Shown: positions 4,601 through 17,087, numbered from the stretch's first letter. The stretch is DNA of 64,000 bases from Nanobdellota archaeon (GCA_038045705.1 JBBSXO010000001.1:1-64000); one strand, 5' to 3'. Numbers and translations: made by a program. Notes: generated by a model from the letters alone, not told the origin.

Positions 4601-5248
4601 ATGTCTGATCCTTTAAAAGAAGCATTCTCAAAAGTACGTCAAGATATAGATTTCTTATATCAAGAATTAGCAGAGATAAAATATCTATTGGAAGAAATAA
4701 AATATCAACAATCAAACCAACCAACAAACCAACAGATAAATCCAACACACAAAGAACCATCTCCAACACAAGACTTACCCTTAAAAGCCATAATAACCGA
4801 AAAAACAAGCTTTTCCACTGGAAACGAAGGGGTTCCAACAAACCAACCAACAAACCAACCAACAAACCAACACCCCCTTATTTCCACTCCAAGTTCGTTT
4901 AATGACTCAATAAGTAACCTTAGACGAGTTTCAGAAATACTAGGAACACTCGACGATTTAAAGAAAGAAGTTCGTTTAAAATTCAAGAGACTTACAGAAC
5001 AAGAGATGCTAATCTACAGCACAATATATCAATTAGAAGATTCTGGTTTTACTGTAGACTATGCTATTTTAGCTCAAAAAACAGGTCTTACTGAAATCTC
5101 AATTAGAGATTACATAAGAAAAATCCTCCAAAAAGATGCACCCTTGATAAAATCGAAGGAATCGAATAAGAAAGTTATTCTTTCTATCCCTCAAGATTTG
5201 AAAAGAATCGCGTCGATAAATACTATAACTCAATTAAGAAACTTATAA
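4601..5248 (+). CDS. coiled-coil / repeat linker / C-terminal winged-helix protein
   Basis: N-terminal LKEAFSKVRQDI coil, (PTNQ)n linker, C-terminal LTEQEMLIYSTI...YAILAQKTGLTEISIRDYIRKI wHTH. Confidence 0.75.
   Translation: MSDPLKEAFSKVRQDIDFLYQELAEIKYLLEEIKYQQSNQPTNQQINPTHKEPSPTQDLPLKAIITEKTSFSTGNEGVPTNQPTNQPTNQHPLISTPSSFNDSISNLRRVSEILGTLDDLKKEVRLKFKRLTEQEMLIYSTIYQLEDSGFTVDYAILAQKTGLTEISIRDYIRKILQKDAPLIKSKESNKKVILSIPQDLKRIASINTITQLRNL
4721..4870 (+). repeat. 12-bp repeat CCAACAAACCAA inside the wHTH gene
   Basis: Perfect copies at 4721-4732, 4835-4846, 4847-4858, 4859-4870; partial copy at ~4712-4720. Confidence 0.9.
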
Positions 5249-5464
5249 ATTCGTCATACCGAATAAACTTGCAGTTCTCACTAAATGTGGTAAAAAGCCC
5301 TAATAACCTTATTTTTTGCACTTTTAAGGCCTAATAACTCTTTTGAGTTTTCACACTCTCTTTTACCAAATCAGACCAAATGCACTCCACACGGCAAAAA
5401 GCCCTCATCTTTGTCTCACTTTTAATTTTTTGATTTTGAATATTCATTTTCCCTCACTTTTTAT

Positions 5465-6106
5465 TCAAATTATGCTATCTTTAGGTAATTTCTTATATTT
5501 TTTATCATTTTTAACTCTCACTTTTGCATATTTCTCTAGTTTGTTACGAACTTCTTCACTCACAAACAGTCTTTTCTTTCCATTAGGTTCGGTTAACTCT
5601 TGTATTAAACCCTCACTTTTCTGTTTTATTGTATTTATTTGACCCCTAATTGTAGCCCTCTCTTTTCCTAAAAGTCTAGCAATATCTTCATAACTTAGCT
5701 TTAATTCTGTGTTCATCAACGTAAAAACAATAACTCTTTCATTACTGCTCAATCCATTCAAAATATCATGAAAATTGCCTGTTTGAACAGGTGTTTGAAC
5801 AGGTTCAACAACATCATAAACAGCCTCCTGTTTATCCAAAACAGCTGTTTTTTTAAACACCTGTTTATTTTCAACAGCCAAATTTGTAAGTGAAACAGCT
5901 TCCTTCAATCCATCAACATCATCTTTTATCGACGATAGTTCTATTTTAAGATCATTTACTAAATCAAACAGCTGTTTATCGCTGTTGTTCAGGTGTTTAA
6001 TCCACTTACTAACGCCTTCAAAGTCTTTTCGAACTTCAGAAAAACTCTTTTTTGTCTCACTTTCAAGCTTCTTCACTTTCTTCGAATTTCCAAACAACCC
6101 AAACAT
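5465..6106 (-). CDS. coiled-coil / C-terminal winged-helix protein (probable paralog of 4601-5248)
   Basis: KKSFSEVRKDF N-terminal motif and LSSNERVIVFTL...YEDIARLLGKERATIRGQINTI wHTH; same architecture as the convergent gene. Confidence 0.75.
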   Translation of the reverse strand: MFGLFGNSKKVKKLESETKKSFSEVRKDFEGVSKWIKHLNNSDKQLFDLVNDLKIELSSIKDDVDGLKEAVSLTNLAVENKQVFKKTAVLDKQEAVYDVVEPVQTPVQTGNFHDILNGLSSNERVIVFTLMNTELKLSYEDIARLLGKERATIRGQINTIKQKSEGLIQELTEPNGKKRLFVSEEVRNKLEKYAKVRVKNDKKYKKLPKDSII

Positions 6107-6776
6107 ATCATTTTATAGACGTATACACTATATAAATGTTGTGCATTTAAGTAACAAAAATAAACAGACTTAAACAGCCTTAAACACTATATAAACACCC
6201 CTCATTCAAAAACAAACAGGTGTTTAAACACCCACCAACACCTGTTTGACTTTTTACACACTTAAACACCCCTAACAAAAAACACCAGAAAACCTATAAA
6301 AAATGGATTAAAAAGGTAAAACTATTTAAACAGCCTCTGTGTCTATAAAATATCTTTAAAGAGAGGTGAAAGGAGGTCAAATGAACGCACTAAGCTGGAT
6401 CACAAAAATTCTTGTAATCGTTGGAGCCATTAACTGGGGTTTAATGGGAGCATTCGATTGGAATCTTGTTTCCGCAATATTTGGAACAGGAACATTCGCT
6501 ATGATCATATATATCCTAATAGGATTATCAGGATTGTGGGAATTAATTGCTTTATTCAAGAAGTAATTAAAAACAAGTTTTTTCTTTCCATTTTTCTTTT
6601 TCTTTCTTTAAAATCAAAAAATCAATGCAACCACCACGCTAAAGTGTGTGGTTTTAGGAGACATAATAAACACCTATTTAAACAGGTCTTATCGAAGATA
6701 AACAGGTGTTTAAAACACCCGTTCAAACAAGCCGGTTGTAAATATTAAACAACTTAACTTATATAACTGTTTAATC
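5778..6776. repeat. dense array of (T)AAACA[G/C] motifs and AAACASSTGTTT (near-)palindromes
   Basis: TGTTTGAACAGG x2 (5780-5803), AAAACAGCTGTTTT (5838-5851), TAAACACCTGTTTA (5854-5867), CAAACAGCTGTTTA (5965-5978), phased TAAACA at 6161/6171/6181/6192, CAAACAGGTGTTTAAACACCC (6213-6233), TAAACAGGTGTTTA (6699-6712) and others. Confidence 0.85.
6381..6566 (+). CDS. DUF378 family small membrane protein
   Basis: LVIVGAINWGLMGAFDWNLV...IYILIGLSG signature; AGGAGGT Shine-Dalgarno at 6371-6377 supports the ATG at 6381. Confidence 0.88.
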   Translation: MNALSWITKILVIVGAINWGLMGAFDWNLVSAIFGTGTFAMIIYILIGLSGLWELIALFKK

Positions 6777-6827
6777 TACCTATATCATGGCTTTAACATT
6801 TAAATATACATTAATATTTAGTAAGTT

Positions 6828-7118
6828 ATGAAATCAGAGATTATTGAGAAACTTTCCATTCTTTCAACAGGTGCATTTGGTCTTGTGGCCGCGTTGGCAT
6901 GGAACGAAGCAATCCAAGGTATTTTCAAACAAGTTTTTGGAGAGCAAAGTTCAATCCCTGCAATGTTCTCATATGCTCTTCTAGTCACAGCAGTAGCAGT
7001 AATAGTCACAATTTGGACTGGTCGAATTGCAGAGAAAGCAAAAAACGCAGAGTTAAGAAGCATCTTCAGAAGAAAAAAAGAGGCACAAGAAGCAACAAAA
7101 CAAGAATCAAAAAAGTAA
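6828..7118 (+). CDS. DUF5654-like membrane protein
   Basis: AFGLVAALAWNEAI...YALLVTAVAV motif. Confidence 0.75.
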   Translation: MKSEIIEKLSILSTGAFGLVAALAWNEAIQGIFKQVFGEQSSIPAMFSYALLVTAVAVIVTIWTGRIAEKAKNAELRSIFRRKKEAQEATKQESKK

Positions 7119-7120
7119 AC

Positions 7121-7175
7121 TAAACTTCTAATCAAAACTTAAATATTTCAGTTAGGCATAAAACTTCGTTTAATT
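7121..7175 (+). repeat. 55-bp inter-gene site, copy A
   Basis: taaacttctaa-tcaaaa-cttaaa-tatttcag-N12-cttcgtttaatt. Confidence 0.7.
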
Positions 7176-7220
7176 CATCAAAACCAATAAGTACTTAAAC
7201 TAGAGAGCATTCATCTAAAT

Positions 7221-7385
7221 ATGGTTTCACTTGTATTAACATTATCAGCAATCATGGCAATAATTGTAGGAATCTTAGTTCTTGTGTTTCCAAAATTCCT
7301 CAGAGTAGCAGTAGGTCTATACCTCTTAATCTTCGGAGTTCTTCAATTCCTAAACATTAATTTCAACCTTTCTCCTTTAGGTTAA
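7221..7385 (+). CDS. DUF3096-like small membrane protein (not in ORF track)
   Basis: Manual translation MVSLVLTLSAIMAIIVGILVLVFPKFLRVAVGLYLLIFGVLQFLNINFNLSPLG (54 aa); TTAAA box upstream. Confidence 0.75.
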   Translation: MVSLVLTLSAIMAIIVGILVLVFPKFLRVAVGLYLLIFGVLQFLNINFNLSPLG

Positions 7386-7437
7386 ACTTCTAAGCGAAAG
7401 CTAAAACTTCCAGTACACCTTTAACATTCGTTTAATT
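7383..7437 (+). repeat. 55-bp inter-gene site, copy B
   Basis: taaacttctaa-gcgaaa-gctaaa-acttccag-N12-attcgtttaatt. Confidence 0.7.
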
Positions 7438-7476
7438 TAACGCAAATCTTTAAAAATAGAATTAATATCTAAGAAT

Positions 7477-7836
7477 ATGCATCAAATCGGTGAGGTGAGC
7501 AGAGCAATCTTAGAAGGCAGAACCTTTGAAGTAGAGAAAAACATTCATCACAAAGGAAGAAAATATAGCGACTGTGAGCGAGATTGTCCTAAAGGCTGGC
7601 AAATAATAACTTACTGGCTTTTACAAGGAATAAGAAATAATTCTAGTTTAATAAAAGAGTTTAATTTATTAGATACCTATGAGTATATCCAAAATCCTGA
7701 TAGTCTTTCTAAAGAAAAAGGTTTTGTTGCGTGGTTCTATGCAAATTCAAATGGACCTTTGATGTATTTCAATAAGGTTCCTTCTTTTCGGGATTCTTCG
7801 CTTGGAGTACGTTACGTGCGCGAAATTTCTAAGTAA
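7477..7836 (+). CDS. probable DGR-type variable protein (C-type lectin-like fold, C-terminal variable region)
   Basis: C-terminus VAWFYANSNGPLMYFNKVPSFRDSSLGVRYVR resembles archaeal/CPR DGR target ends (SxGxRxxR); CPKGW motif; GC hairpin about 20 nt after the stop. Confidence 0.6.
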   Translation: MHQIGEVSRAILEGRTFEVEKNIHHKGRKYSDCERDCPKGWQIITYWLLQGIRNNSSLIKEFNLLDTYEYIQNPDSLSKEKGFVAWFYANSNGPLMYFNKVPSFRDSSLGVRYVREISK

Positions 7837-7840
7837 ATTA

Positions 7841-7882
7841 CCTCCGTAAGAGTGAGGCGCGAAGCGCCGAACTGCGCCGACC
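7841..7882 (+). repeat. 42-bp GC-rich element with GGCGC-GAA-GCGCC hairpin, copy 1
   Basis: cctccgtaagagtgaggcgcgaagcgccgaactgcgccgacc; hairpin 7856-7868. Confidence 0.85.
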
Positions 7883-7917
7883 ACAAATTATATTAACTCA
7901 AAAAAACCTTACTAAAT

Positions 7918-8124
7918 ATGGAAAATCAACAAATAACTCTTGAAGAAATGCATAAAATTCTCTTATATTTAAAGGCAAAAATGCAAAAAATGGATCATTA
8001 TATAGAAGATTTAGAATTTGCAAGACTTACACAAGAAGCATGGCAAGAAATTGAGACTGGGAAGTATACTAAGTATAATTCCTCAGAGGATTTTTTAGCA
8101 ACATTAAAAGAGAAATATGCCTAA
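7918..8124 (+). CDS. putative antitoxin (RelB-like)
   Basis: 68 aa, acidic C-half (QEAWQEIETGKY...EDFL); overlaps the start of a RelE-like gene. Confidence 0.7.
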   Translation: MENQQITLEEMHKILLYLKAKMQKMDHYIEDLEFARLTQEAWQEIETGKYTKYNSSEDFLATLKEKYA

Positions 8125-8362
8125 AATAAATGAAACAGATGCATTCAAAAGAGCAAAAATTAAGTTAGATGGGAGTTATTTAATAAGACTTGAAAAATTA
8201 ATTAGAAAGATTATTGAAAATCCAAATATTGGTAAACCTGTGCAATATGAACGCAAAGGGACAAGAGAATTATATCTTCCACCACTTAGAGTTTCTTATG
8301 CATATGACCTGATGACAGACACATTAACATTACTTACTATTTATCATAAAGACGATCAATAA
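8117..8362 (+). CDS. RelE/ParE family toxin
   Basis: KIIENPNIGKP...TRELY...RVSY...IYHKD pattern. Confidence 0.8.
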   Translation: MPKINETDAFKRAKIKLDGSYLIRLEKLIRKIIENPNIGKPVQYERKGTRELYLPPLRVSYAYDLMTDTLTLLTIYHKDDQ

Positions 8363-8369
8363 TATAAAC

Positions 8370-8424
8370 CCAACTTTTAATTATCGCTTAAATCTTCCAG
8401 CACATATCAAATATTCGTTTAATC
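8370..8424 (+). repeat. 55-bp inter-gene site, copy C
   Basis: ccaacttttaa-ttatcg-cttaaa-tcttccag-N12-attcgtttaatc. Confidence 0.7.
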
Positions 8425-8455
8425 CATCGGTGTTTTCAATACCTAAAAATAATTG

Positions 8456-8497
8456 CCTCGGTAAGAGTGAGGCGCGAAGCGCCGAACTGCGCAGACC
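8456..8497 (+). repeat. 42-bp GC-rich hairpin element, copy 2
   Basis: cctcggtaagagtgaggcgcgaagcgccgaactgcgcagacc; two mismatches to copy 1. Confidence 0.85.
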
Positions 8498-8530
8498 GTA
8501 AGTTTAAAAATAGAGCAAAATCATTAAATT

Positions 8531-8944
8531 ATGGAAAGACCTAGGAGAATTGGAATGGATGGATACATATCCGAAGAAAATAATAGGTTTAGACCATCCG
8601 TAAGATTTCAGACTAATTTAAATAGAACAACTAAGGATATAGCTTCATTAGTAGCTCGACCGTTAGGCTTTTTTATTCCAGGGCGTTACTACATAAGCGG
8701 TCCATATAATAGAGAAGCAAATCATGCAGAAATTTATGAAGAGAGTATATTTACACAAGGACGTGCTGTTCTCGAGGTCGTTAGTAAGATCGATTATGAA
8801 AGCAAAGTTATAGAACATGTTATATCAACTGGTCAAAGTAATCCCAAAGATATTAGCCTGAAAGATTTAAGAGAACTTCTAAGAAGATCATTTAGGCATA
8901 AAAGATTATTTCCTAAAAACCATCCAAAAATTAGGACTTATTGA
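8531..8944 (+). CDS. hypothetical protein
   Basis: 137-aa ORF with TTTAAAAA box upstream; no recognisable motif. Confidence 0.6.
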   Translation: MERPRRIGMDGYISEENNRFRPSVRFQTNLNRTTKDIASLVARPLGFFIPGRYYISGPYNREANHAEIYEESIFTQGRAVLEVVSKIDYESKVIEHVISTGQSNPKDISLKDLRELLRRSFRHKRLFPKNHPKIRTY

Positions 8945-9015
8945 CTCAAATTAATGGTTTCTAGCAACAGTTCGTACATCCAAAGGTTTAAAAACCACTT
9001 CTTAGTAGCAAACTT

Positions 9016-9357
9016 ATGACAAGAGACCTTACATTAACAGTAACAAACTGCTACAAAAGAGGAAATCTAGTGAGGACTTCATTTTATGCAAATGATATTG
9101 GATTTGATTGTAAGACTATTCCAGAATTAGCACAAGACTTAAGGTCAAATTATCCAAAACTTGTAGGAGCAGATTCTACCTATCGCAACGCTCGTCAAGA
9201 AGACTGCGAGATAATAATCTCTGAACCTGGAGAAGTTCTTATAGACAGACCATTTACTCAATCCGAGCTTGAATTATTTGCACAAGAACTGTCTAAACCA
9301 AAAGAAATGTCCAAACCTCGAAGAACAGGTAGAATACCTTTTCCTCCTCAAGACTAG
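9016..9357 (+). CDS. hypothetical protein
   Basis: 113-aa ORF with TTTAAAAA box upstream. Confidence 0.6.
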   Translation: MTRDLTLTVTNCYKRGNLVRTSFYANDIGFDCKTIPELAQDLRSNYPKLVGADSTYRNARQEDCEIIISEPGEVLIDRPFTQSELELFAQELSKPKEMSKPRRTGRIPFPPQD

Positions 9358-9429
9358 ATTTTAGTGTAAATAGCAAACGTTCGCACAACCTTTATTAACA
9401 CGTCTTTTGGGGTCCCTAAAAGCCACTTT

Positions 9430-9603
9430 TTAGTCAATTTTCTGCTTTTTTCGTAAAGTTAAGGTATTATCATTAGAAATTGCTTCCAATTCATCCCCTT
9501 CTTTGAATTTACATTGATCCATGATAACTGAGGGGATATTAATTTTATACTTATAGTATTCTTGATTTTTGTAAGTTCGAGACTTCTCTTTTAAGATTTT
9601 CAT
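9430..9603 (-). CDS. AbrB/MazE/SpoVT-like DNA-binding protein
   Basis: YYKYKINIPSVIMDQCKFKEGDELE swapped-hairpin pattern; ATG at 9603 chosen. Confidence 0.7.
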   Translation of the reverse strand: MKILKEKSRTYKNQEYYKYKINIPSVIMDQCKFKEGDELEAISNDNTLTLRKKQKID

Positions 9604-9655
9604 ATCTTTCAAAATGTAATCAAGTATTTAAATTTTTAGAGACCGAAATTGTTTT

Positions 9656-10069
9656 TTAATGTAAAATCTCTAGGGCTCTTTTTCGGCCACCTAGTATGTT
9701 AAATGGTTTATCAGAGAATTCTATTGTTCCCCCTACATTTTCAAGAAGGTAATCTATTACTGTTTCATTCCCTCTGTATCTTTTTACTCTCCCTCTTAAT
9801 GTTGCCTTTTGTAGTGGAATTCCCTGTGGTCCAATATATAATCTAAAATTATGATAATAACCTCCATTACCTGAATAGACTCGTTGACCCTCATACCCTT
9901 TATCTCCTCGATAATCTTCTCCAGCTTCAGGAGTAGGAGCAAAAACCACAAAAAATAAAGGACTCTCCCTTTCTTCTTCAATAGTTTTTGCTAAGTGTTC
10001 TAATTTATAATTTGCAGGAATATCTTCAAATACCAATTCCTTTCCATCCTTTAATATTAAATTTGTCAT
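9656..10069 (-). CDS. hypothetical protein
   Basis: 137-aa ORF; no recognisable motif. Confidence 0.6.
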   Translation of the reverse strand: MTNLILKDGKELVFEDIPANYKLEHLAKTIEEERESPLFFVVFAPTPEAGEDYRGDKGYEGQRVYSGNGGYYHNFRLYIGPQGIPLQKATLRGRVKRYRGNETVIDYLLENVGGTIEFSDKPFNILGGRKRALEILH

Positions 10070-10116
10070 TGTTTTTTGTAATTTTTAAGCCTATTTAACC
10101 CTTTCTTTTTGAAAAT

Positions 10117-10171
10117 CTAAGTTTTAAGCAACGCCTAAAAATTCTAGCTAACAGAAGAGGTTCGTATTAAT
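10117..10171 (+). repeat. 55-bp inter-gene site, copy D
   Basis: ctaagttttaa-gcaacg-cctaaa-aattctag-N12-gttcgtattaat. Confidence 0.6.
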
Positions 10172-10782
10172 TACTGATTTTCCCTTAATTTCTTACTTAT
10201 ATTTCCTAACTCTTCATAAACCCTTTCACTTAGTGATGCTACTTCTTCTAAAAACTTAGAATTATATACTAATCTTGAATATTCTACTCCGAAGTCTAGT
10301 AATCTTTGTAACTCTTGTATTTCTTTCAGCTCTCCTGTCGAAACAGTGACTCCTCCGGTGTCTTTCCCTGTTAGCACTTCTAAACTATGTTTTTTAGCCA
10401 AGTCTTTTGCAAGTTGTCCTCGTAATATAGCATCAAGGCAAATTAGTTTACTTATCGGATGTATCAAATTTAGACCTGGAAACAGCATTTCTGGATCTTC
10501 AACCACTCCAAGACTTACATAACCAAGATAATCATCTCCCTTAGAGCTAGAATCAAGAAACAAATTTAATTTTCCCTTCCCCTTATCAAAAATCTTAAAT
10601 AGGGGAATTGATGGAAATGTCCTGCTCGTTGCCCTTCCAAAAGCAGATTCTCTTTCATCAAGGGGAGTATATGTTCGCGGAATTGCATACACGTTAAATC
10701 TTAAGACATCCCAGGCTCCTAAATCTTCTACAAAAGGTTGCGAAAGAAGGTATGCTCTAGCTTTCTCAAAGTTTAAATCCAT
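10171..10782 (-). CDS. hypothetical protein
   Basis: ~203-aa ORF, ATG at 10782 with TTTAAA box upstream. Confidence 0.6.
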   Translation of the reverse strand: MDLNFEKARAYLLSQPFVEDLGAWDVLRFNVYAIPRTYTPLDERESAFGRATSRTFPSIPLFKIFDKGKGKLNLFLDSSSKGDDYLGYVSLGVVEDPEMLFPGLNLIHPISKLICLDAILRGQLAKDLAKKHSLEVLTGKDTGGVTVSTGELKEIQELQRLLDFGVEYSRLVYNSKFLEEVASLSERVYEELGNISKKLRENQ

Positions 10783-10853
10783 ACTGAACAAATTTATCTA
10801 TTGATATTTAAACCTTTTCTTTTAGTAACTATCTAGTAGTTATCTCGCACAAT

Positions 10854-10980
10854 CAAATATTCAATCATCGCTTAAAACTTCCAGCAAATAGGGAAAGGCA
10901 TAAACGAGTTCGTTTTATCCTTGCTTGATATTTCAGCTTATGACCTAATCTTTCAGCATAGCTAAGAAGTTCGGTTAAAC
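10854..10980 (+). repeat. two tandem inter-gene sites, copies E (10854-10919, 23-nt spacer) and F (10926-10980)
   Basis: caaatattcaa-tcatcg-cttaaa-acttccag-N23-gttcgttttatc; tgatatttcag-cttatg-acctaa-tctttcag-N12-gttcggttaaac. Confidence 0.6.
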
Positions 10981-11044
10981 CATTAAAATGGTAAAAGTAT
11001 TGTTTAATGGAAAAATATATAAACTATGGAATTACATTAGTTTT

Positions 11045-11302
11045 ATGGAAAAGATAGTTAGTTTTGATAAGCAGGGTAGACTGTATTTACCCGAAGAATT
11101 AAGAAAAAAACTACATTTTAAGATGTTTTTAGCTAAACTTCAAGGAAAAGGAGTTTTCTTAGAGCCTCTAGAAAGTGATCCGATAGAAGCTCTCGCAATA
11201 TTGGGAAGAGAAAAGTTGAAGCACAAGTCTATCGAGCAGCTCAAAAAAGAAGCGAGAGGAGAAATAGAGGAAAATGCACTCAAAAAAGTACGCAGACACT
11301 GA
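11045..11302 (+). CDS. AbrB/MazE-type antitoxin (VapB-like)
   Basis: DKQGRLYLPEELRKKL motif; overlaps a downstream PIN gene; ATG at 11045 chosen. Confidence 0.8.
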   Translation: MEKIVSFDKQGRLYLPEELRKKLHFKMFLAKLQGKGVFLEPLESDPIEALAILGREKLKHKSIEQLKKEARGEIEENALKKVRRH

Positions 11303-11654
11303 TTTTTTTCTTGCTTTAATGAAAGATTTTGATTGGTTAAAAGCAAATGCTAAAAAAATTTACGAATTTAACAAAGATAATATTTTTGTCACTTCTTTTA
11401 CAATAGTAGAGATAATGATTGTGTGTAAAAGAGAAAATATCTCAATAAAAGATACTTTAATTCAAATATCCAGAATTTCCAAATTAGAAAGTTTATCATG
11501 GGATATATTTTTTAAAGCTTGTAGTTTTATAGAAAAAGGTGCAACAATTTTTGACAGTTTATTGATGGCTTCTTGTAATTCTGAAGATCAAATAATAGGT
11601 TCAGACAATATTTATCAAAAATTTGGTTTTAATGTTATTGATCTAAAGAAGTAA
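11274..11654 (+). CDS. PIN-domain toxin (VapC family)
   Basis: YADTDFFLAL...E...FDSLLMA...IIGSD acidic PIN residues. Confidence 0.85.
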   Translation: MHSKKYADTDFFLALMKDFDWLKANAKKIYEFNKDNIFVTSFTIVEIMIVCKRENISIKDTLIQISRISKLESLSWDIFFKACSFIEKGATIFDSLLMASCNSEDQIIGSDNIYQKFGFNVIDLKK

Positions 11655-11733
11655 ATCTCTATTTTTTTACATATTTTCATGTGTATGAATTTGTGTGAGG
11701 AAAATTTAATTACTTAATTTGCCTTAATAAAAA

Positions 11734-11970
11734 ATGCAATCAGATAGTTATTTTAGTGATGAAAAAATCAAGCATATCTTACACAAATACAAAGAAATGT
11801 TTGCTGTTCTTGAGCAATATGATAAAACTCGCGAATGGCCTATTGGAAGAGCTAGATTAGATATTACTCTAAGCAGAAAGACTATTCTGAAATTAAAAAA
11901 ATTAAAGGAGAAAACAGGCAAGCCCATTTCACATATAATCGAAGAAGCTCTTAATATTTTAAACAAGTAG
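11734..11970 (+). CDS. ribbon-helix-helix (CopG-like) protein
   Basis: RLDITLSRKTILKLKKLKEKTGKPISHIIEEAL RHH pattern. Confidence 0.75.
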   Translation: MQSDSYFSDEKIKHILHKYKEMFAVLEQYDKTREWPIGRARLDITLSRKTILKLKKLKEKTGKPISHIIEEALNILNK

Positions 11971-12004
11971 AAAGCCTTAAATATCATTATGTATCATTAT
12001 CTTT

Positions 12005-12274
12005 ATGCAAAAAGAAATAAAAGCAATAACTCGGAAATGGGGAAATTCAATAGCTATAGTTATACCTAACGAGTTTGCAAATAAGGAAAATATTAAAGAA
12101 AATATTGAAGTAAAAATTACTATAGAGAAAACTCGTCCAAAAGCAGGAGTGTTATGGGGATTTGGAAAAGGAAAATTCAAAAGATCGACAGAAGAAACTA
12201 TTAAAGAGGTGAAAGCAGGGTGGTTAAGTGCTTCTGATCGAGAAAGAGAGGCAAAGTGGAAGAATCAGAAATAG
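12005..12274 (+). CDS. AbrB/MazE antitoxin
   Basis: RKWGNSIAIVIP motif; overlaps a PIN gene. Confidence 0.88.
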   Translation: MQKEIKAITRKWGNSIAIVIPNEFANKENIKENIEVKITIEKTRPKAGVLWGFGKGKFKRSTEETIKEVKAGWLSASDREREAKWKNQK

Positions 12275-12636
12275 AATATTTTTTTGATACTTATGCAATT
12301 ATAGAAATTCTTAATTCCAATCCGAATTATAAGAAATATGTTGATAAGCCTGCAGTAATAACTATTTTCAATTTGGCAGAGATTTATTATTTTTGTTTGG
12401 ATAATTTTGATGAAGACGAATTAGAAGAAATATATTCAAAATATAAGGATGCTGTTGTGGATATCGAAGATGAAACTTTAAAAAAGGCAATAAAATTCAG
12501 AAAAGAACATAAGAAAAAGGACATTTCATATACGGATGCAATAGGCTACATTTATGCTAAAGAGCATGGAATGAAATTCTTAACTGGAGATAAAGCTTTT
12601 GAAGGAATGGCCGGCGTAGAGTATGTTAAGAAATAA
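12256..12636 (+). CDS. PIN-domain toxin (VapC family)
   Basis: FFDTYAIIE...EI...SYTDAIGY...LTGDKAF. Confidence 0.88.
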   Translation: MEESEIEYFFDTYAIIEILNSNPNYKKYVDKPAVITIFNLAEIYYFCLDNFDEDELEEIYSKYKDAVVDIEDETLKKAIKFRKEHKKKDISYTDAIGYIYAKEHGMKFLTGDKAFEGMAGVEYVKK

Positions 12637-12654
12637 TTTTATCCTATTTTGATT

Positions 12655-12745
12655 ATCTTGCATAAATACAAAGAAATGTTTGCGGCTCTTGAGCAATATG
12701 ATAAAACTCGCGAATGGCCTATTGGGAGAACAAGACTTGATATTA
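12655..12745 (+). pseudogene. partial duplicate of the RHH gene 11734-11970
   Basis: 91-bp near-identical copy of 11776-11866 (ILHKYKEMFAxLEQYDKTREWPIGRxRLDI), lacking start and C-terminus. Confidence 0.85.
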
Positions 12746-12790
12746 GTTTAATCATAAAATTTAAATACTATAGCGAGTTATATAATCAAT

Positions 12791-13018
12791 ATGGCTCAAA
12801 CAACTATTCAAATAAGCAGAGAACTCCTTGAAAAACTAAAACAAAGAAAAATCAGTGAGAAAGAAAGCTATGAAGATGTAATTTGGGATTTGATGGAAGA
12901 TACAATGGAGTTATCTGAAGAAACAAAAAGATCAATAGAAGATGGAAGAAAACAGATAAAAGAGGGAAAAGTGCACAGTTGGGAAGATATCAAAAAGCGC
13001 TTGTCTTTAGATGTATAG
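12791..13018 (+). CDS. putative antitoxin
   Basis: TTIQISRELLEKLK...ESYEDVIWDL N-terminus and acidic C-terminus; overlaps a RelE gene. Confidence 0.8.
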   Translation: MAQTTIQISRELLEKLKQRKISEKESYEDVIWDLMEDTMELSEETKRSIEDGRKQIKEGKVHSWEDIKKRLSLDV

Positions 13019-13262
13019 TATAAAATTTTCAGACAAGGCATTAAGATTCTTTGAAAAATTAGATAAAAATATTCAAGATAGGATTGGTTCAGTATTAGAA
13101 AGAATTAAGATTCGTCCACAAGACTTTATTGAGAAACTTGTCGGAGAGCAAGGGTACAAGCTTAGGGCAGGAGATTATAGATTATTCTCAGATATAATAG
13201 AAAACCAACTTCTTATTTTTATTATAGAAATCAATCATAGAAAAAATGCTTATAAAAAATAA
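13011..13262 (+). CDS. RelE/StbE family toxin
   Basis: YSIKFSDKALRF...YKLRAGDYRL...HRKNAY. Confidence 0.88.
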   Translation: MYSIKFSDKALRFFEKLDKNIQDRIGSVLERIKIRPQDFIEKLVGEQGYKLRAGDYRLFSDIIENQLLIFIIEINHRKNAYKK

Positions 13263-13295
13263 TCACTTAGTGCTATCTACTCTTTCCCAATTGTC
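13263..13295 (-). pseudogene. remnant 3' end of the GT2 gene (DNWERVDSTK-stop)
   Basis: Encodes the same last 10 residues as 15250-16140; 20-bp identical core 13270-13289 = 15257-15276. Confidence 0.8.
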
Positions 13296-13444
13296 TCTGT
13301 AATATTTGCTTTCTTTTAAATTCGAAATAAAATCTCTTATGGGTTTATTTTATTGAGAATAAATGTTTTTCTATTATTTTTAATTAAACCACTGACAGAG
13401 TCAATTTAAGATAGATTTTTATAGTAAATTATTGTTTTCCAAAG

Positions 13445-15244
13445 ATGAGTGATAAAAGAATTTTACTTGGTTCTGCTCATTCAGTTATAGAGCCCCTAGG
13501 TTTATTGCATCTCGGAGGACTTGCCAGAGATATGGGCTGGGAGCGAGCTTACACTCTTGTTAAAGATCATGATTTTGATGAATTTTTTAGAAGAGTTAAT
13601 GAATTTAGACCAGATGTTGTGGGGTTTAATGTTTACACAGGAAACCATAACCAACTGCACGAAGCCTTAAAAAAACTTAGGAAAGATAATCCTCAAATAG
13701 CAGTAGTAGTAGGTGGTCCTCACGCAACTTATTTTCCTTCTGAAACGCGCGAATTTGCTGATTTTGTTGTAATGAGCGAAGGTTTTGGAGGACTCAAATC
13801 CATTTTAGAAGGAACTGCTGAAAAAGGAATATTGCCTATGTCTAGTGGCATGCGTTTTCCTCGTCCAGACAGAGAAACTTTCTATGCACAATTTCCAGAA
13901 CATGCAAATAGTCCAATAAAAAGTATTATCACTATGACTGGTTGCCCTTTCAAATGTAGCTATTGTTACAATGCTAGTACTGCAAGCACAGTTGCGGGTA
14001 ACATGCCTCCTGAAGTAGCTACACATTTAGCACAAACACTAGGGGTGAATGGAAGACTTTTCCCTACAAACATACGTTCTGTCGATGATGTAGTTGCAGA
14101 AGGTAGAGAAATAGTTGAGAAATGGCCAAATACTAGAGTAGTTTATATGCAAGATGATGTTCATGGTTTCGATACTAAATCGTGGATGCCTGAATTTGCA
14201 GCCCGTTGGCCTAAAGAAGTTGGAATTCCTTATCATGCGCAAATGCGATGGGAAATGGTAAAACCTGATCGACTTGATTTGTTAACACGAGCAGGTTGTT
14301 TTGGATTAACTTTAGCAATAGAATCTGCTCTAGACCAAGTGCGTAGCGAAGTGCTTAATAGAAGAATGCCTAATCAACTTATGTTTGACGGAATGAAGGC
14401 TGTTATTGAGAGAGGTTTGAAAGTTAGAACAGAACAAATTACGGGTTTACCTTATGGAGCAACTTCTGTAGAAACCCCTATTAATCTCGACGCAGATCTT
14501 GCCTTAGTCAAATTAAATGTAGATCTTCGTGCAATGTCTGGTGGACCAACTATGGCATGGGCTTCTACTTTAGCTCCTTACAAAGGAACTGAAATGGGGG
14601 TATATTGTGCAAGATTTGGACATTATGTAGGGAATAATAGCGATGTTCCAGATACATTTTTTGATAAGAGTGTATTGAGATTCCCAGCCAGATGGGTAGG
14701 TCCATCACTAGAACATAGGAAAGATGAATCTGGGATTTGGTTAGAACAAGATAAATTAGAAGAATACAGGGCGAGAAATGCAGAGTTAAGAAGAATCTTT
14801 AATTTTGTAACTCTTGTTCCAGAAGGCCATAAATTAGCAGGAGATTATCTCAAAAGTTCACAACCCTTTAGCCACAATAGATTAGGTGAAGATACTATTA
14901 CTCATCTTCGAGCTATGGGAGAAAATCCGAGGGCTCAGCAAATGCTTGAAAGAATAGATTTAATTAGAATTTATATTTCAGGTAGAGACATTGTAGATCC
15001 AGACTTAAGAAAAGATGTGGAATCCCTAGCCCCTTATTTCGCATGTATTCCTCATGGAACTTTGGCAGTAGATAGAGCTATTAAATATGCAACTAGAAGC
15101 AATGGACATGGAAAAGGAGTTGATCCTAAAGTATTATCCACAGCAGTAAGACATCATTTATATGATAATGATCTCTATGCTCATAATGGTGCGGGCCTAG
15201 GCGGAGAGCGTTTAGAAAATTCTAGAACTCCTTCAAAAGTTTAA
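13445..15244 (+). CDS. B12-binding-domain radical SAM protein
   Basis: N-terminal PLGLLHL...DVVGF...VGGPHAT cobalamin-binding domain; CPFKCSYC (CxxxCxxC). Confidence 0.9.
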   Translation: MSDKRILLGSAHSVIEPLGLLHLGGLARDMGWERAYTLVKDHDFDEFFRRVNEFRPDVVGFNVYTGNHNQLHEALKKLRKDNPQIAVVVGGPHATYFPSETREFADFVVMSEGFGGLKSILEGTAEKGILPMSSGMRFPRPDRETFYAQFPEHANSPIKSIITMTGCPFKCSYCYNASTASTVAGNMPPEVATHLAQTLGVNGRLFPTNIRSVDDVVAEGREIVEKWPNTRVVYMQDDVHGFDTKSWMPEFAARWPKEVGIPYHAQMRWEMVKPDRLDLLTRAGCFGLTLAIESALDQVRSEVLNRRMPNQLMFDGMKAVIERGLKVRTEQITGLPYGATSVETPINLDADLALVKLNVDLRAMSGGPTMAWASTLAPYKGTEMGVYCARFGHYVGNNSDVPDTFFDKSVLRFPARWVGPSLEHRKDESGIWLEQDKLEEYRARNAELRRIFNFVTLVPEGHKLAGDYLKSSQPFSHNRLGEDTITHLRAMGENPRAQQMLERIDLIRIYISGRDIVDPDLRKDVESLAPYFACIPHGTLAVDRAIKYATRSNGHGKGVDPKVLSTAVRHHLYDNDLYAHNGAGLGGERLENSRTPSKV

Positions 15245-16262: not shown

Positions 16263-17087
16263 TTATAAATTTTGTGTAAGGCGATCTAATGGATTTATTA
16301 TTTTCTTTAACTGTTCACTGGAAACATGAGTATAAATTTCTGTCGTGTTTAAATTTGTATGGCCTAGCAATTTTTGAATCATTCTAATATCTGTTCCTGA
16401 CTCAAGTAAATGTGTAGCAAAACTATGCCTCAATGTATGAGGAGTAACTTTTTTTTGAATATCTGCTCGGTTTCTAAGATTTTTAACTATCTTCTGAACA
16501 TTTCTTGTTGTAAGCGGATCTTCTTGTGAAAAAAGATATTTTGTACCCTCTCTTTTTTTGAGATATTCATTTAATTCACCAGCAAGAGCAGGAGATAAAG
16601 TAAACATTCTGTCTTTACCGCCTTTTCCAGATCTAACCCAACCAGTATTTTCAGAAAAATTTATATCACTAGGTTTTAAGTTTACAAGTTCAGAAACTCG
16701 AAGTCCTGATGAATATAGCAAAGATAAAATCAATCTCGATTTTCTAGTTTCAGCAGACTTCAATAACTTAGAGACTTCATCTCTAGTTAAAACCTCTGGA
16801 AGTTTTTTATCTTTTTTAGGCATTTTTATATCTCCAACTTCTTTTTTTAGAACCTCTGTAAAGAAAAATTTAAGTGAAGCAGCTGCCAACATTATAGTAT
16901 TCTTAGACTTTTCATCAAACATTCCTGCTAAGTATGTCCTCACATCTTCTTGAGTTAAACTTTCAACAGGTTTGTTTGCACTCTTCAGAAATTTATCTAC
17001 AAAAAATGAATAGTTTCTAACAGTTAATGGGGAAAATCCTCTAAGTTTTAATTCTGTATGTAATTTTACTAAAGCGTCTATCATCAT
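16263..17087 (-). CDS. xerA: XerA-like tyrosine recombinase
   Basis: N-terminal SAM-like domain; catalytic R (GLRVSE), K (GKGGKDR), HTLRHSFATH, LGH, Y (TTEIYT). Confidence 0.88.
   Translation of the reverse strand: MMIDALVKLHTELKLRGFSPLTVRNYSFFVDKFLKSANKPVESLTQEDVRTYLAGMFDEKSKNTIMLAAASLKFFFTEVLKKEVGDIKMPKKDKKLPEVLTRDEVSKLLKSAETRKSRLILSLLYSSGLRVSELVNLKPSDINFSENTGWVRSGKGGKDRMFTLSPALAGELNEYLKKREGTKYLFSQEDPLTTRNVQKIVKNLRNRADIQKKVTPHTLRHSFATHLLESGTDIRMIQKLLGHTNLNTTEIYTHVSSEQLKKIINPLDRLTQNL

Follow-up and report, generated by a model that had tools for sequence, protein, structure and literature searches.

The locus described here raises the question of whether a set of repeated intergenic elements marks the junctions of a new type of gene-cassette array, and what could act on them. 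The window, i.e., the whole stretch of DNA that was analysed, is 64,000 nucleotides long; its host is a tiny groundwater archaeon with a genome of 844 kb. Our answer, which is tentative, is that the element (E) may be a protein-bound junction where cassettes are inserted and lost. The region as a whole is best described as an origin-proximal flexible gene island in which blocks of small genes are parted by E. The initial annotation reported six same-strand intergenic elements, and all six were found on the plus strand where it had placed them:

7119..7176, plus strand: E1, standard three-box copy (iterated-profile span 7122-7176), 2-3 nt past the DUF5654 stop (7116-7118)
7381..7437, plus strand: E2, standard copy (iterated-profile span 7382-7437), its TTAAAC box containing the DUF3096 stop (7383-7385)
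8368..8425, plus strand: E3, standard copy (iterated-profile span 8372-8425) after a ParE-like gene, whose stop (8360-8362) lies 7-9 nt before it
10115..10170, plus strand: E4, variant with CTAGCT as second box (iterated-profile span 10116-10170), abutting the stop of the minus-strand gene 10171-10791
10852..10920, plus strand: E5, long form with 11 additional nt (iterated-profile span 10853-10920)
10924..10981, plus strand: E6, terminal copy directly after E5 (iterated-profile span 10925-10980)

E is about 57 nt long and is built of three direct AAAC(n)TTC-like boxes at intervals of about 20 nt (two helical turns). The layout proposed initially was visible in the alignment: five copies are equal in spacing, and the 11 extra nucleotides of E5 sit ahead of its TTCG box. 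The closeness to stop codons that had been claimed is evident at E1, E2, and E3. A profile scan of the genome had been suggested as a check. In leave-one-out profiles every held-out copy was the top non-training match genome-wide (E-values of 1.5e-8, 1.1e-5, 1.3e-5, 1.7e-4, 3.7e-4, and 8.5e-3, the weakest being E6), and no seventh copy was found in the 10 contigs (844,273 b) with the six-copy nhmmer profile, the next match having E = 0.75. E is locus-specific, all six copies in the genome lying at one place, which counts for the junction reading. A dispersed repeat of the MITE or REP type was rejected, as the copies occupy one locus in a single orientation.

E5 and E6 are indeed back to back, with a gap of 4 nt and no gene between them. 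The proposal that they represent an empty cassette was not borne out; a pair of this type (long form plus E6) closes the right end of the array in 9/16 genus loci and is also present on one metagenome contig, making it a conserved terminal double site. Such a specialised site at the array end counts for the junction reading. The extra nucleotides of E5 build an imperfect 11-6-11 dyad around GAGTTC (8/11 arm positions match) that is unique in the genome; among 120 other genera the core pattern of this dyad was no commoner than a reversed control pattern. An 11-6-11 dyad of the tyrosine-recombinase type is absent from the standard copies, which counts against the junction reading.

Could E belong to a system that is already known? 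DNA folding gave z-scores of -0.65 to +1.03 (12 folds, six sites on both strands), and RNAalifold predicted 0 pairs in an alignment of 50 copies, in agreement with the earlier view that the sites are not attC-like. A search of Rfam over 5000-15000 (E up to 1) gave no match on the sites, the sole match (6206-6254) lying off them. There were no tRNA genes in 1-30000, and tRNA-derived att repeats were rejected on both grounds. The identification of E as an attC, dif, tRNA, Rfam RNA, or ORB site was rejected in each case.

It had been suggested that the array is serviced by an XerA-like recombinase encoded about 3 kb beyond its end:

16263..17087, minus strand: XerA tyrosine recombinase (NCBIfam XerA equivalog, 271.5 bits, cut-off 220)

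The protein reached 220.2 bits on the TIGR02249 integron integrase model, below its cut-off of 265. Judged from its sequence, it is a true, housekeeping XerA and a core gene, which adjoins the S9/L13/L18e/RpoD/S11/S4 operon. It does lie 3 kb past the interval claimed for the array, but 5.3 kb from E6. In this genus and in a few other genera XerA lies close to the array; it was not found in the fetched flanks of L222, L228, L231, L234, L235, and L253, which represent six other genera. The genome contains four Phage_integrase matches, none beside the array. Among 141 representative proteins of arrays and flanks scanned with Pfam, a large serine recombinase (Resolvase plus Recombinase) was detected in L038 alone, after the last E. 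Its best NCBIfam match was CcrB (157.9 bits, far under the cut-off of 900), and an enzyme of this kind occurs in 1/33 loci. No recombinase is consistently linked to the array, which counts against the junction reading. A Xer recombinase that might service the array is present, but its gene belongs to the core set, adjoins a ribosomal operon, and lies near the array in some genera only.

The explanation that E is a divergent member of a known system, either an integron (IntI, attC) or an Xer-dependent dif/pdif/IMEX element, is largely refuted by the tests made and appears very improbable. It would account for a variable cassette array with repeated sites and toxin-antitoxin modules, for the imperfect dyad of E5, and for an XerA 5.3 kb off with 220 bits on an integron-integrase subfamily model. 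However, both cut-offs place this recombinase with XerA (271.5 vs. 220) and not with the integron integrases (220 vs. 265), the sites have neither an attC-like fold nor an Rfam match, and the standard copies have no dyad core. Furthermore, the sites are all direct repeats, none alternating, and the E5 dyad is not kept beyond the genus.

The E cluster was present in 15/16 other genomes of the genus, with weaker forms across the order (96 copies in 33 loci in total), at 1 to 6 copies per species within one genus. Genus clusters are mostly on a single contig. In G001, G002, G006, and G009 a second small contig also matched; several of these matches lie at contig ends, and they are probably fragments of the same array. 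Contigs G009:C1, G009:C14, G001:C18, L225, and L233 start 25-95 nt from an E, and 12/16 genus arrays are on a contig of <7.3 kb or at most about 2.5 kb from a contig end. These assembly breaks near E count for the junction reading. In each of the 33 loci all E copies are co-oriented. Opposite-strand matches (21 loci) were only five, all weak (E 4e-5 to 8e-4) and each overlapping a plus copy. The orientation is constant even though 19 of the 64 genes in the 16 genus arrays sit on the other strand. In other genera, copies are 72-94% alike inside one genome vs. about 63% when compared with copies elsewhere. E is a lineage-conserved, co-oriented, locus-specific site, and its conservation and polarity count for the junction reading.

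The genes and blocks between and beside the copies are as follows:

7221..7385, plus strand: DUF3096 small membrane protein gene (c1)
7477..7836, plus strand: ORFan c37, 119 aa
7836..7889, plus strand: G element copy 1, a hairpin-forming, GC-rich repeat shortly before a TATA-like box
7918..8362, plus strand: toxin-antitoxin pair, a 68-aa gene and an 81-aa ParE-like gene
8451..8504, plus strand: G element copy 2
8531..10069, both strands: four-gene block without internal E, c38 (+), c39 (+), c8 (-), and a 137-aa ORFan (-)
9430..9612, minus strand: MazE/AbrB-like c8, within the preceding block
10171..10791, minus strand: ORFan c40, 206 aa
10988..13262, plus strand: variable toxin-antitoxin block without E, with two VapBC-like pairs, an RHH gene, and a ParDE-like pair

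The arrays begin on the left with a conserved unit, c1 followed by E. In agreement with the initial description, the cargo genes are short, mutually unrelated, and found on both strands; they have their own TATA-like boxes. Four toxin-antitoxin pairs had been counted as cargo. One (7918-8362) does lie between E copies, but those at 10988-11654, 12005-12636, and 12791-13262 are to the right of E6, in the block that also carries a truncated duplicate of the RHH gene. The sites enclose hypervariable content that comprises ORFans, toxin-antitoxin pairs, and small membrane proteins, and this variability counts for the junction reading. Among the 64 genes inside the 16 genus arrays (median 92 aa), 23 have no relative in any other locus. 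A comparison of relatives, proposed earlier as a check, revealed that blocks differ across loci: cassettes c12-c13, c8/c17, c37, c38, c39, c40, c44-c45, and c54 change positions and neighbours, and L024 and L032 have flanks 88-91% identical and zero common cassettes.

Do the edges of the exchanged DNA coincide with E? Over 802 nt, the c40 block matches that of G012, a different species, at 95.8% identity, vs. 79-81% in the flanks. The c40 protein is 98% identical to its G012 counterpart, and among the GTDB species representatives a relative was found in G012 only. This comparison shows a recent exchange of one cassette between species. The highest-identity stretch begins at box 3 of E4 and the right edge of the block falls inside box 2 of E5. 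The c37 block (88% nucleotide identity to G012 vs. about 80% in the flanks) begins at box 3 of its E. L027 has two copies, 1.9 kb from each other, that match exactly over a 37-nt segment of box 1, spacer, and box 2 and have unrelated flanks on both sides; the left part of E is exactly duplicated around inserted DNA. Other observations count against the junction reading. Edges of shared sequence vary with the comparison (left of box 2, in box 2, at box 3, right of box 3), i.e., there is no fixed crossover point in E; the right edge of the c37 block is not at E, nor does the variable zone as a whole have its left edge (about 6566-6604) at one. A search of reads for precise deletions between sites had been suggested. 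No E-to-E junction was found, and the sole clean structural variant in public runs, seen in one run, lacks 879 bp between 105-nt repeats at 11775 and 12654. This deletion within the E-free block points to homologous recombination there and also counts against the junction reading. Of the cassette array as initially proposed, the co-oriented sites, the variable blocks, and one recent exchange are real; however, variation is also bounded where E is absent.

The positions of E relative to genes bear on another explanation, in which E arose as, and has remained, a module (terminator or insulator) on the 3' side of genes for small membrane proteins and spreads together with them by tandem duplication, with the cargo swapped later. 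E starts -10 to +9 nt from the stop of the left-hand plus-strand gene in 28 of 39 cases, and in 15 of those 28 the gene stops at the TAA within the TTAAAC box. Right-hand minus-strand genes end -6 to +13 nt from E in 13 of 18 cases. Such tight junctions count for the junction reading. In favour of the flanking-module explanation, either end of E can give a stop codon to an incoming gene. The first E always follows a small membrane-protein gene (DUF3096, DUF5654, DUF378, or c27), and L039 and L235 contain paralogous c27 genes, each followed by E. We nevertheless regard this explanation as quite improbable: the orientation of E is independent of adjacent genes, some copies are flanked by divergent gene starts (L029 2793, L031 2147, and the E5-E6 pair), and E has neither a hairpin nor a run of at least five T (read off the 50-copy alignment). 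The three copies of L039 are 94% alike, but upstream only the last ~11 nt are common to two of them and the flanks are otherwise unrelated; the cargo genes are likewise mutually unrelated.

The constant neighbour of the array is not XerA; it is a winged-helix gene, c0, together with orc1/oriC.

5465..6106, minus strand: c0, a long N-terminal helix, then a MarR/ArsR-like winged helix

Across the order c0 is single-copy, always beside the array, and transcribed away from it, with the E cluster on its 5' side. The gene orc1/cdc6 lies 3-17 kb from c0 in 9/9 genomes having both on one contig. The origin was predicted from sequence only; the predicted oriC (C4:52342-52860) shows ORB-like boxes in inverted arrangement, a G string, and a stretch of 92% AT. 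The E profile had no match there below E = 5, and E as an archaeal oriC or ORB was rejected, since the ORB boxes and G string are at C4:52342-52860 and not at E.

This neighbourhood suggests that E could be a binding-site cluster of a chromosome-associated protein and part of the origin architecture (initiation control, segregation, or insulation). Variable genes would gather because the region tolerates insertions, and turnover would be due to ordinary homologous or illegitimate recombination. We consider this, the main rival of the junction reading, somewhat unlikely. Among the matches listed, E-like copies lie at most 1.5 kb from c0 in 19/26 other-family genomes of the order (our own count, places of E matches vs. 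places of c0), and 5/8 such c0-side loci have direct repeats of the same box type at a spacing of 280-430 nt. That E-like copies adjoin c0 across the order even with merely two or three small genes also counts against the junction reading. E copies are directed away from orc1 in 4/4 genus genomes, and the three-box spacing is strictly kept, departing by 1 extra nt in 4/50 copies or by one helical turn. A box 3-like GTTCG(T/C)TT(A/T)A is found at a conserved predicted-oriC place in 5/5 genus genomes (a second copy in 4/5), and the genome has three occurrences of the 12-mer TTCGTTTAATTT, one in E2 and two in oriC (0.55 expected). Since oriC also contains box 3, something other than recombination may be what preserves E, which counts against the junction reading. 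However, the likeness between E and oriC ends at box 3, and the box 3 10-mer occurs nine more times elsewhere in the genome (14 copies vs. 3.8 expected). For sites bound by a single factor, identity over 33-37 nt, including spacers, right next to unrelated DNA would not be expected, nor does this explanation sit well with the range of copy numbers within one genus. The region upstream of c0 has a different palindromic repeat, so c0 is not an obvious E binder.

If E is a protein-bound cassette junction, the protein would most likely contact a single face of the DNA duplex. A piece that is circular or flanked by E would recombine with a resident E in a Campbell-type insertion, by which E is duplicated, and recombination between two copies would remove a block. 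As the cassettes have no recombinase, the enzyme would have to be supplied in trans, and the sole conserved candidate is the chromosomal XerA. Alternatively, host homologous recombination may operate, with E serving as portable homology. The role of E as substrate, the identity of the enzyme, and the place of strand crossing are what we infer from the patterns above.

Archaeal oriC ORBs and bacterial initiator-titrating loci provide one comparison. The E array shares with them a conserved polar cluster a few kb from orc1, one box common to the predicted oriC, and boxes in helical phase. It differs from both in having genes between the copies and a copy number that varies by species, and from ORBs in that E has no G string or ORB dyad and oriC is elsewhere.

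Staphylococcal SCC-type islands lie near the origin, in tandem, with short co-oriented direct repeats and very variable cargo. The E array is likewise near the (predicted) origin, bounded by direct repeats, and very variable in cargo, and one relative, L038, has a serine recombinase with CcrB as best match. In contrast to these islands, such an enzyme is found in 1/33 E loci only, after the last E; each repeat has three boxes in about 57 bp, an rlmH-type target gene is lacking, and blocks are 0.3-2.5 kb vs. tens of kb.

As in IMEX and pdif systems, a housekeeping Xer in trans could explain cassettes without a recombinase, Xer is present in the genome, and arrays of direct, partly degenerate sites arise likewise. 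Standard E copies do not have the 28-bp dif-like core (two ~11-bp arms, 6-bp spacer), and the array is near the origin, whereas IMEX are at the terminus. The sites of pdif modules alternate in orientation, whereas E copies are direct in every locus. In Thermococcales, dif does not adjoin xerA, according to PMC2958812.

With sedentary chromosomal integrons the E array shares a fixed chromosomal platform. It also resembles integrons in its co-oriented repeated sites between short, mostly unknown genes and toxin-antitoxin modules, its rapid turnover among relatives, ORFs ending inside the site, and a distinct terminal site. Sites are more alike within a lineage than between lineages, as attC sites resemble each other within a genome according to PMC9668308. 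Unlike in integrons, there is no IntI beside the array, and E has three direct boxes and no single-stranded fold, whereas attC sites are imperfect inverted repeats folding as hairpins. Genes occupy both strands and have TATA-like boxes of their own, up to four of them can form a block without an internal site, and the special site closes the end distal to c0, the constant neighbour. E resembles a new kind of gene-cassette junction with a putative mode of action. The broader proposal, that Pacearchaeal DPANN have a platform in which a three-box double-stranded site by the origin, XerA or a host factor moving recombinase-less cassettes, and a long-form double site as docking end are combined, is unlikely at present; if true, it would add a third kind of cassette platform to integrons and SCC/IMEX-type islands.

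The initial annotation placed six intergenic elements (here called E) at 7121, 7383, 8370, 10117, 10854 and 10926; all six were recovered there, every one on the plus strand. The main features of the region are listed below.

5465-6106, minus strand, c0, single-copy winged-helix gene
7119-10981, plus strand, array of six elements, E1-E6
10171-10791, c40, gene lying between two E copies
10852-10920, plus strand, E5, long form of the element
10924-10981, plus strand, E6, terminal element
10988-13262, toxin-antitoxin stretch
16263-17087, XerA gene

Alignment revealed three boxes common to all six copies: a TTAAAC-TTyCAA-like box 1, box 2 (CTTAAAAC-TTCCAGCA), and box 3, TTCG(T/G)TT(A/T)A, in which TTCG is invariant. 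Twelve variable nucleotides separate box 2 from box 3, successive TTC cores are spaced about 20 and 19 nt from box to box, and E5 has 11 additional nt ahead of box 3. A profile built from the six copies found no further copy in the 844-kb assembly (next match, E-value 0.75), and in leave-one-out profiles each omitted copy was the top non-training match genome-wide (E-values 1.5e-8 to 8.5e-3). Since the profile finds nothing else and the omitted copies rank best, the motif is neither at chance level nor spread over the genome, and a genome-wide terminator or transcription factor site is ruled out by the lack of additional copies. None of 12 DNA folds of the sites was better than shuffled sequences and RNAalifold predicted no base pair from 50 copies, excluding an attC-like hairpin or structured RNA; the sites had no match in Rfam and no tRNA lies within 30 kb, excluding a known RNA family or a tRNA-derived att site. 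The earlier view that these are not attC sites is thus borne out.

The E sites and the variable island that they mark are real and conserved across an archaeal order. With a sequence-only model, clusters of strong matches were detected in 15 of the 16 other genomes of the genus, mostly on one contig per genome. In four of these (G001, G002, G006, G009) another small contig also has matches and is probably a piece of that array. Other genera and families gave weaker matches. The 96 copies counted across 33 loci (fetched via the model and via a sequence pattern) are co-oriented inside every locus; five weak opposite-strand matches (21 loci) each overlap a plus-strand copy, because the boxes are near-palindromic. 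The box 2-box 3 pattern gave 0 matches in viral contigs. A 16-nt box-2 pattern matched at least 118 metagenomic stretches and is too unspecific: real copies were present in just 2 of the 80 stretches fetched, namely L103 (the same contig as locus L029) and L108.

The left flank of the array has a constant order, c6, c3, c0, small membrane-protein genes and array, in 24/24 loci in which it was captured. The c0 gene is single-copy and occurs in 17/17 high-quality genomes of the order sample. Its product has only weak HTH matches in Pfam and no family in NCBIfam, and its atlas neighbours are HTH proteins of Nanobdellota. The predicted structure (mean pLDDT 69.8) is a long helix followed by a MarR/ArsR-like winged helix, a fold that rules out a hidden recombinase. 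In 19 of the 26 genomes of other families with listed E-like matches, these lie within 1.5 kb of c0, and direct repeats of the same box type, spaced 280-430 nt, are found at 5/8 such c0 loci. Repeated AAACAG(C/G)TGTTTAAAC-type palindromes were also observed upstream of c0 (6150-6340 and 6692-6714); this motif, which adjoins c0 in other families as well (loci L263, L273, L275), probably serves c0 or a neighboring regulator as operator. TTAAAC is denser near c0 and the array (4.7 vs 1.0 per kb), an enrichment that was set aside as probably reflecting TATA-like promoters. The right flank varies. Within the genus it consists of a GT2 gene, XerA and then a ribosomal operon (S9/L13/L18e/RpoD/S11/S4); six other genera have different genes there, and XerA is absent from the fetched flank.

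The 16 arrays of the genus enclose 64 ORFs (median 92 aa), 45 of them on the E strand and 23 without a relative in any other locus. Few kinds of cargo were named by Pfam: toxin-antitoxin components (ParE, PIN, MazF, Fic, RHH, MazE/AbrB), small membrane proteins (DUF3096, DUF5654, DUF378, MscL, DUF4383), and EF-hand and dockerin fragments. No recombinase gene was found inside any array. Loci L024 and L032 have flanks that are 88-91% identical and zero cassettes in common, and cassettes common to several loci change position and neighbors; gene content between the sites is therefore not invariant among relatives. Junctions follow a regular geometry. With a plus-strand gene on its left, E begins -10 to +9 nt from the stop codon in 28/39 cases, in 15 of which the stop is the TAA of the TTAAAC box. 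Minus-strand genes on the right end -6 to +13 nt from E in 13/18 cases, and a gene whose start faces E is set apart from it by 36-145 nt of promoter-like sequence. Since some copies have a gene start on either side, termination alone does not account for E.

Two further sequence modules were noted. Minus-strand cassettes (10070-10115 and 10795-10850 here; loci L029 and L030) have in common a conserved promoter-like module, TATTTAA(A/C)CC(T)TTTCTTTT, placed 5-25 nt left of the next E. The second, the G element, is a GC-rich sequence of ~54 nt with a GGCGC-GAA-GCGCC hairpin, directly upstream of TATA-like boxes, and has three copies in the genome:

7836-7889 of the window, G element
8451-8504 of the window, G element
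G000:C3:93029-93096 of the present assembly, minus strand, G element

The window copies have no match in Rfam, and population contigs break at both. In related loci the G element is in plus orientation 30-145 nt past E copies in 12/14 loci having matches; the exceptions are the two weakest matches, L040 (other strand) and L022:7210 (ahead of the first E).

Several observations point to movement of genes at these sites. The c40 protein is 98% identical to the product of a gene in genome G012, its sole relative found among GTDB species representatives, and with 95.8% identity over 802 nt the c40 block stands out from its flanks (79-81%). On the right the similarity runs out inside box 2 of E5. 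At the left end, near-identity sets in at box 3 of E4; the E4 spacer differs by an 11-nt indel, and boxes 1 and 2, together with 24 nt of promoter-like sequence, are ~88% alike. A second shared stretch, containing c37 (88%), also has its left edge at box 3 of an E copy, and its other edge coincides with a G element and the promoter of the next gene rather than with E. In locus L027 an exact 37-nt segment, box 1-spacer-box 2, is present in two E copies 1.9 kb apart, with unrelated surrounding DNA on both sides; this is the trace that would be expected from an insertion duplicating its target site. In other genera E copies within one genome are 72-94% alike vs ~63% to all others, a difference reached in 0/1000 shuffles of genome labels, with the caveat that related genomes are not independent. 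Several contigs begin 25-95 nt from E, and most arrays are on short contigs or at contig ends, which is what one repeat joined to different neighbors in a population produces.

Other observations do not fit a precise site-specific exchange. The edges of shared sequence vary by pair: some fall within box 2 or to its left, others at box 3 or to its right. In an aggregate identity profile of E pairs with a common left or right neighbor, non-independent orthologous pairs predominate, so that no sharp breakpoint stands out. The variable zone starts ~530 nt left of E1, blocks hold up to four genes without internal E, and the toxin-antitoxin stretch is variable, though without E. This stretch contains a 105-nt direct repeat (11775-11879 and 12654-12758, 88% identical) produced by a truncated duplicate of an RHH gene. 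The window is contained in 8 public runs from 2 studies, four of which may be its source, and joints were taken from Logan contigs of runs X5-X8. One run has a contig with a clean 879-bp deletion between the repeats (joint 11807 to 12687, 39 shared letters, 148 letters on the shorter side), by which a VapBC-like pair is lost; this points to homologous recombination. Of 14 listed contig joints, 0 connect two E copies; most have just 21-32 nt on the shorter side and are unreliable, and contigs are blind to rare circles or deletions, so this outcome weighs neither for nor against recombination at E.

The adjacent E5 and E6 had been likened to an empty cassette. We found that a long-form element followed directly by a second E forms the right array end in 9/16 loci of the genus and in L108; the pair is conserved and does not represent a cassette that lost its content recently. 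The extra bases of E5 create an imperfect 11-6-11 dyad around GAGTTC (8/11 positions matching), the core of which is unique in the present genome. A 17-nt pattern of this dyad, with at most 2 mismatches, occurs in 43/120 other genera (44/121 genomes counting the present one), at a rate close to that of the reversed control; the dyad was rejected as a family-wide dif and cannot be named dif. An ATAAAC...GTTTAT palindrome (contig C1:139680) was dismissed because it is inside a long ORF, and no genuine dif was located in the genome.

It had also been suggested that a XerA-like recombinase services the array. Its identity is confirmed: the protein passes the archaeal XerA equivalog of NCBIfam, falls below the integron-integrase cut-off and outscores the genome's other three Phage_integrase matches by a wide margin. 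Its service to the array is possible but unproven. The protein is 63-85% identical across the family, and its gene is a housekeeping gene in a core neighborhood. Outside the genus, XerA and the array are less than 10 kb apart in loci L056, L060 and L068; XerA comes after the array in L225, and is 1.2 kb from c0 in genome G049. In the latter, three box-3-like motifs, two of them an inverted pair, precede XerA (L263:11640-11720), with no array between XerA and c0. A large serine recombinase in genome G057 (L038:8485-9812), split over two frames (256 and 186 aa) and beginning 124 nt past the last E, is the sole recombinase observed at the end of an array; CcrB is its top match in NCBIfam, at a score far under the cut-off. 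We consider XerA a candidate enzyme for E.

A cassette junction is the best single explanation of E. The main rival is that E is retained for a function linked to the replication origin. The orc1/cdc6 gene lies 3-17 kb from c0 in 9/9 genomes with both on one contig, representing three families. In the present assembly contig C4 ends with orc1, and a predicted oriC of textbook-like layout upstream of it (C4:52342-52860, outside the window) has ORB-like boxes and a G string flanking a stretch of 92% AT. By synteny with G012, G014, G016 and G009, the array would lie ~6-12 kb from oriC, with E copies pointing away from orc1. On the origin's orc1 side, 5/5 genomes of the genus have a box-3-like motif at a conserved position; 4/5 have one on the far side, once inverted. 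The 12-mer TTCGTTTAATTT is present in the genome only in E2 and twice in oriC, which favors the origin-linked reading; however, the box-3 10-mer has nine other genome copies, and the likeness between E and oriC is confined to box 3. In a box-3 position-weight scan (weights from 9 long-form copies only) the two copies in oriC came 3rd and about 23rd, a weak result. On these sequence comparisons, a box 3 common to E and oriC is a lead. The oriC region (G000 C4:50035-52860) also contains two copies of GTTCGTTTAATTT, and the orc1 reading frame is 768 aa here, whereas nine relatives have 402-424 aa; the longer frame may be a fusion, or two genes read as one.

DPANN archaea are host-dependent and their genomes very small; little is known about how they obtain and try out new genes. 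As a cassette junction, E would be the defined DNA site marking a conserved, order-wide platform on which gene turnover is focused at a single origin-proximal locus. With small membrane proteins, ORFans and toxin-antitoxin modules as its cargo, such a platform would give these lineages a compact engine for exchanging accessory genes. Because its geometry is fixed and the candidate binders are few (XerA, the neighboring winged-helix proteins, Orc1), the mechanism is directly testable in vitro although the organisms are uncultured. No description of E-type sites was found in the full-text literature searched; if E belongs to origin function, it would represent a new class of archaeal origin-associated element.
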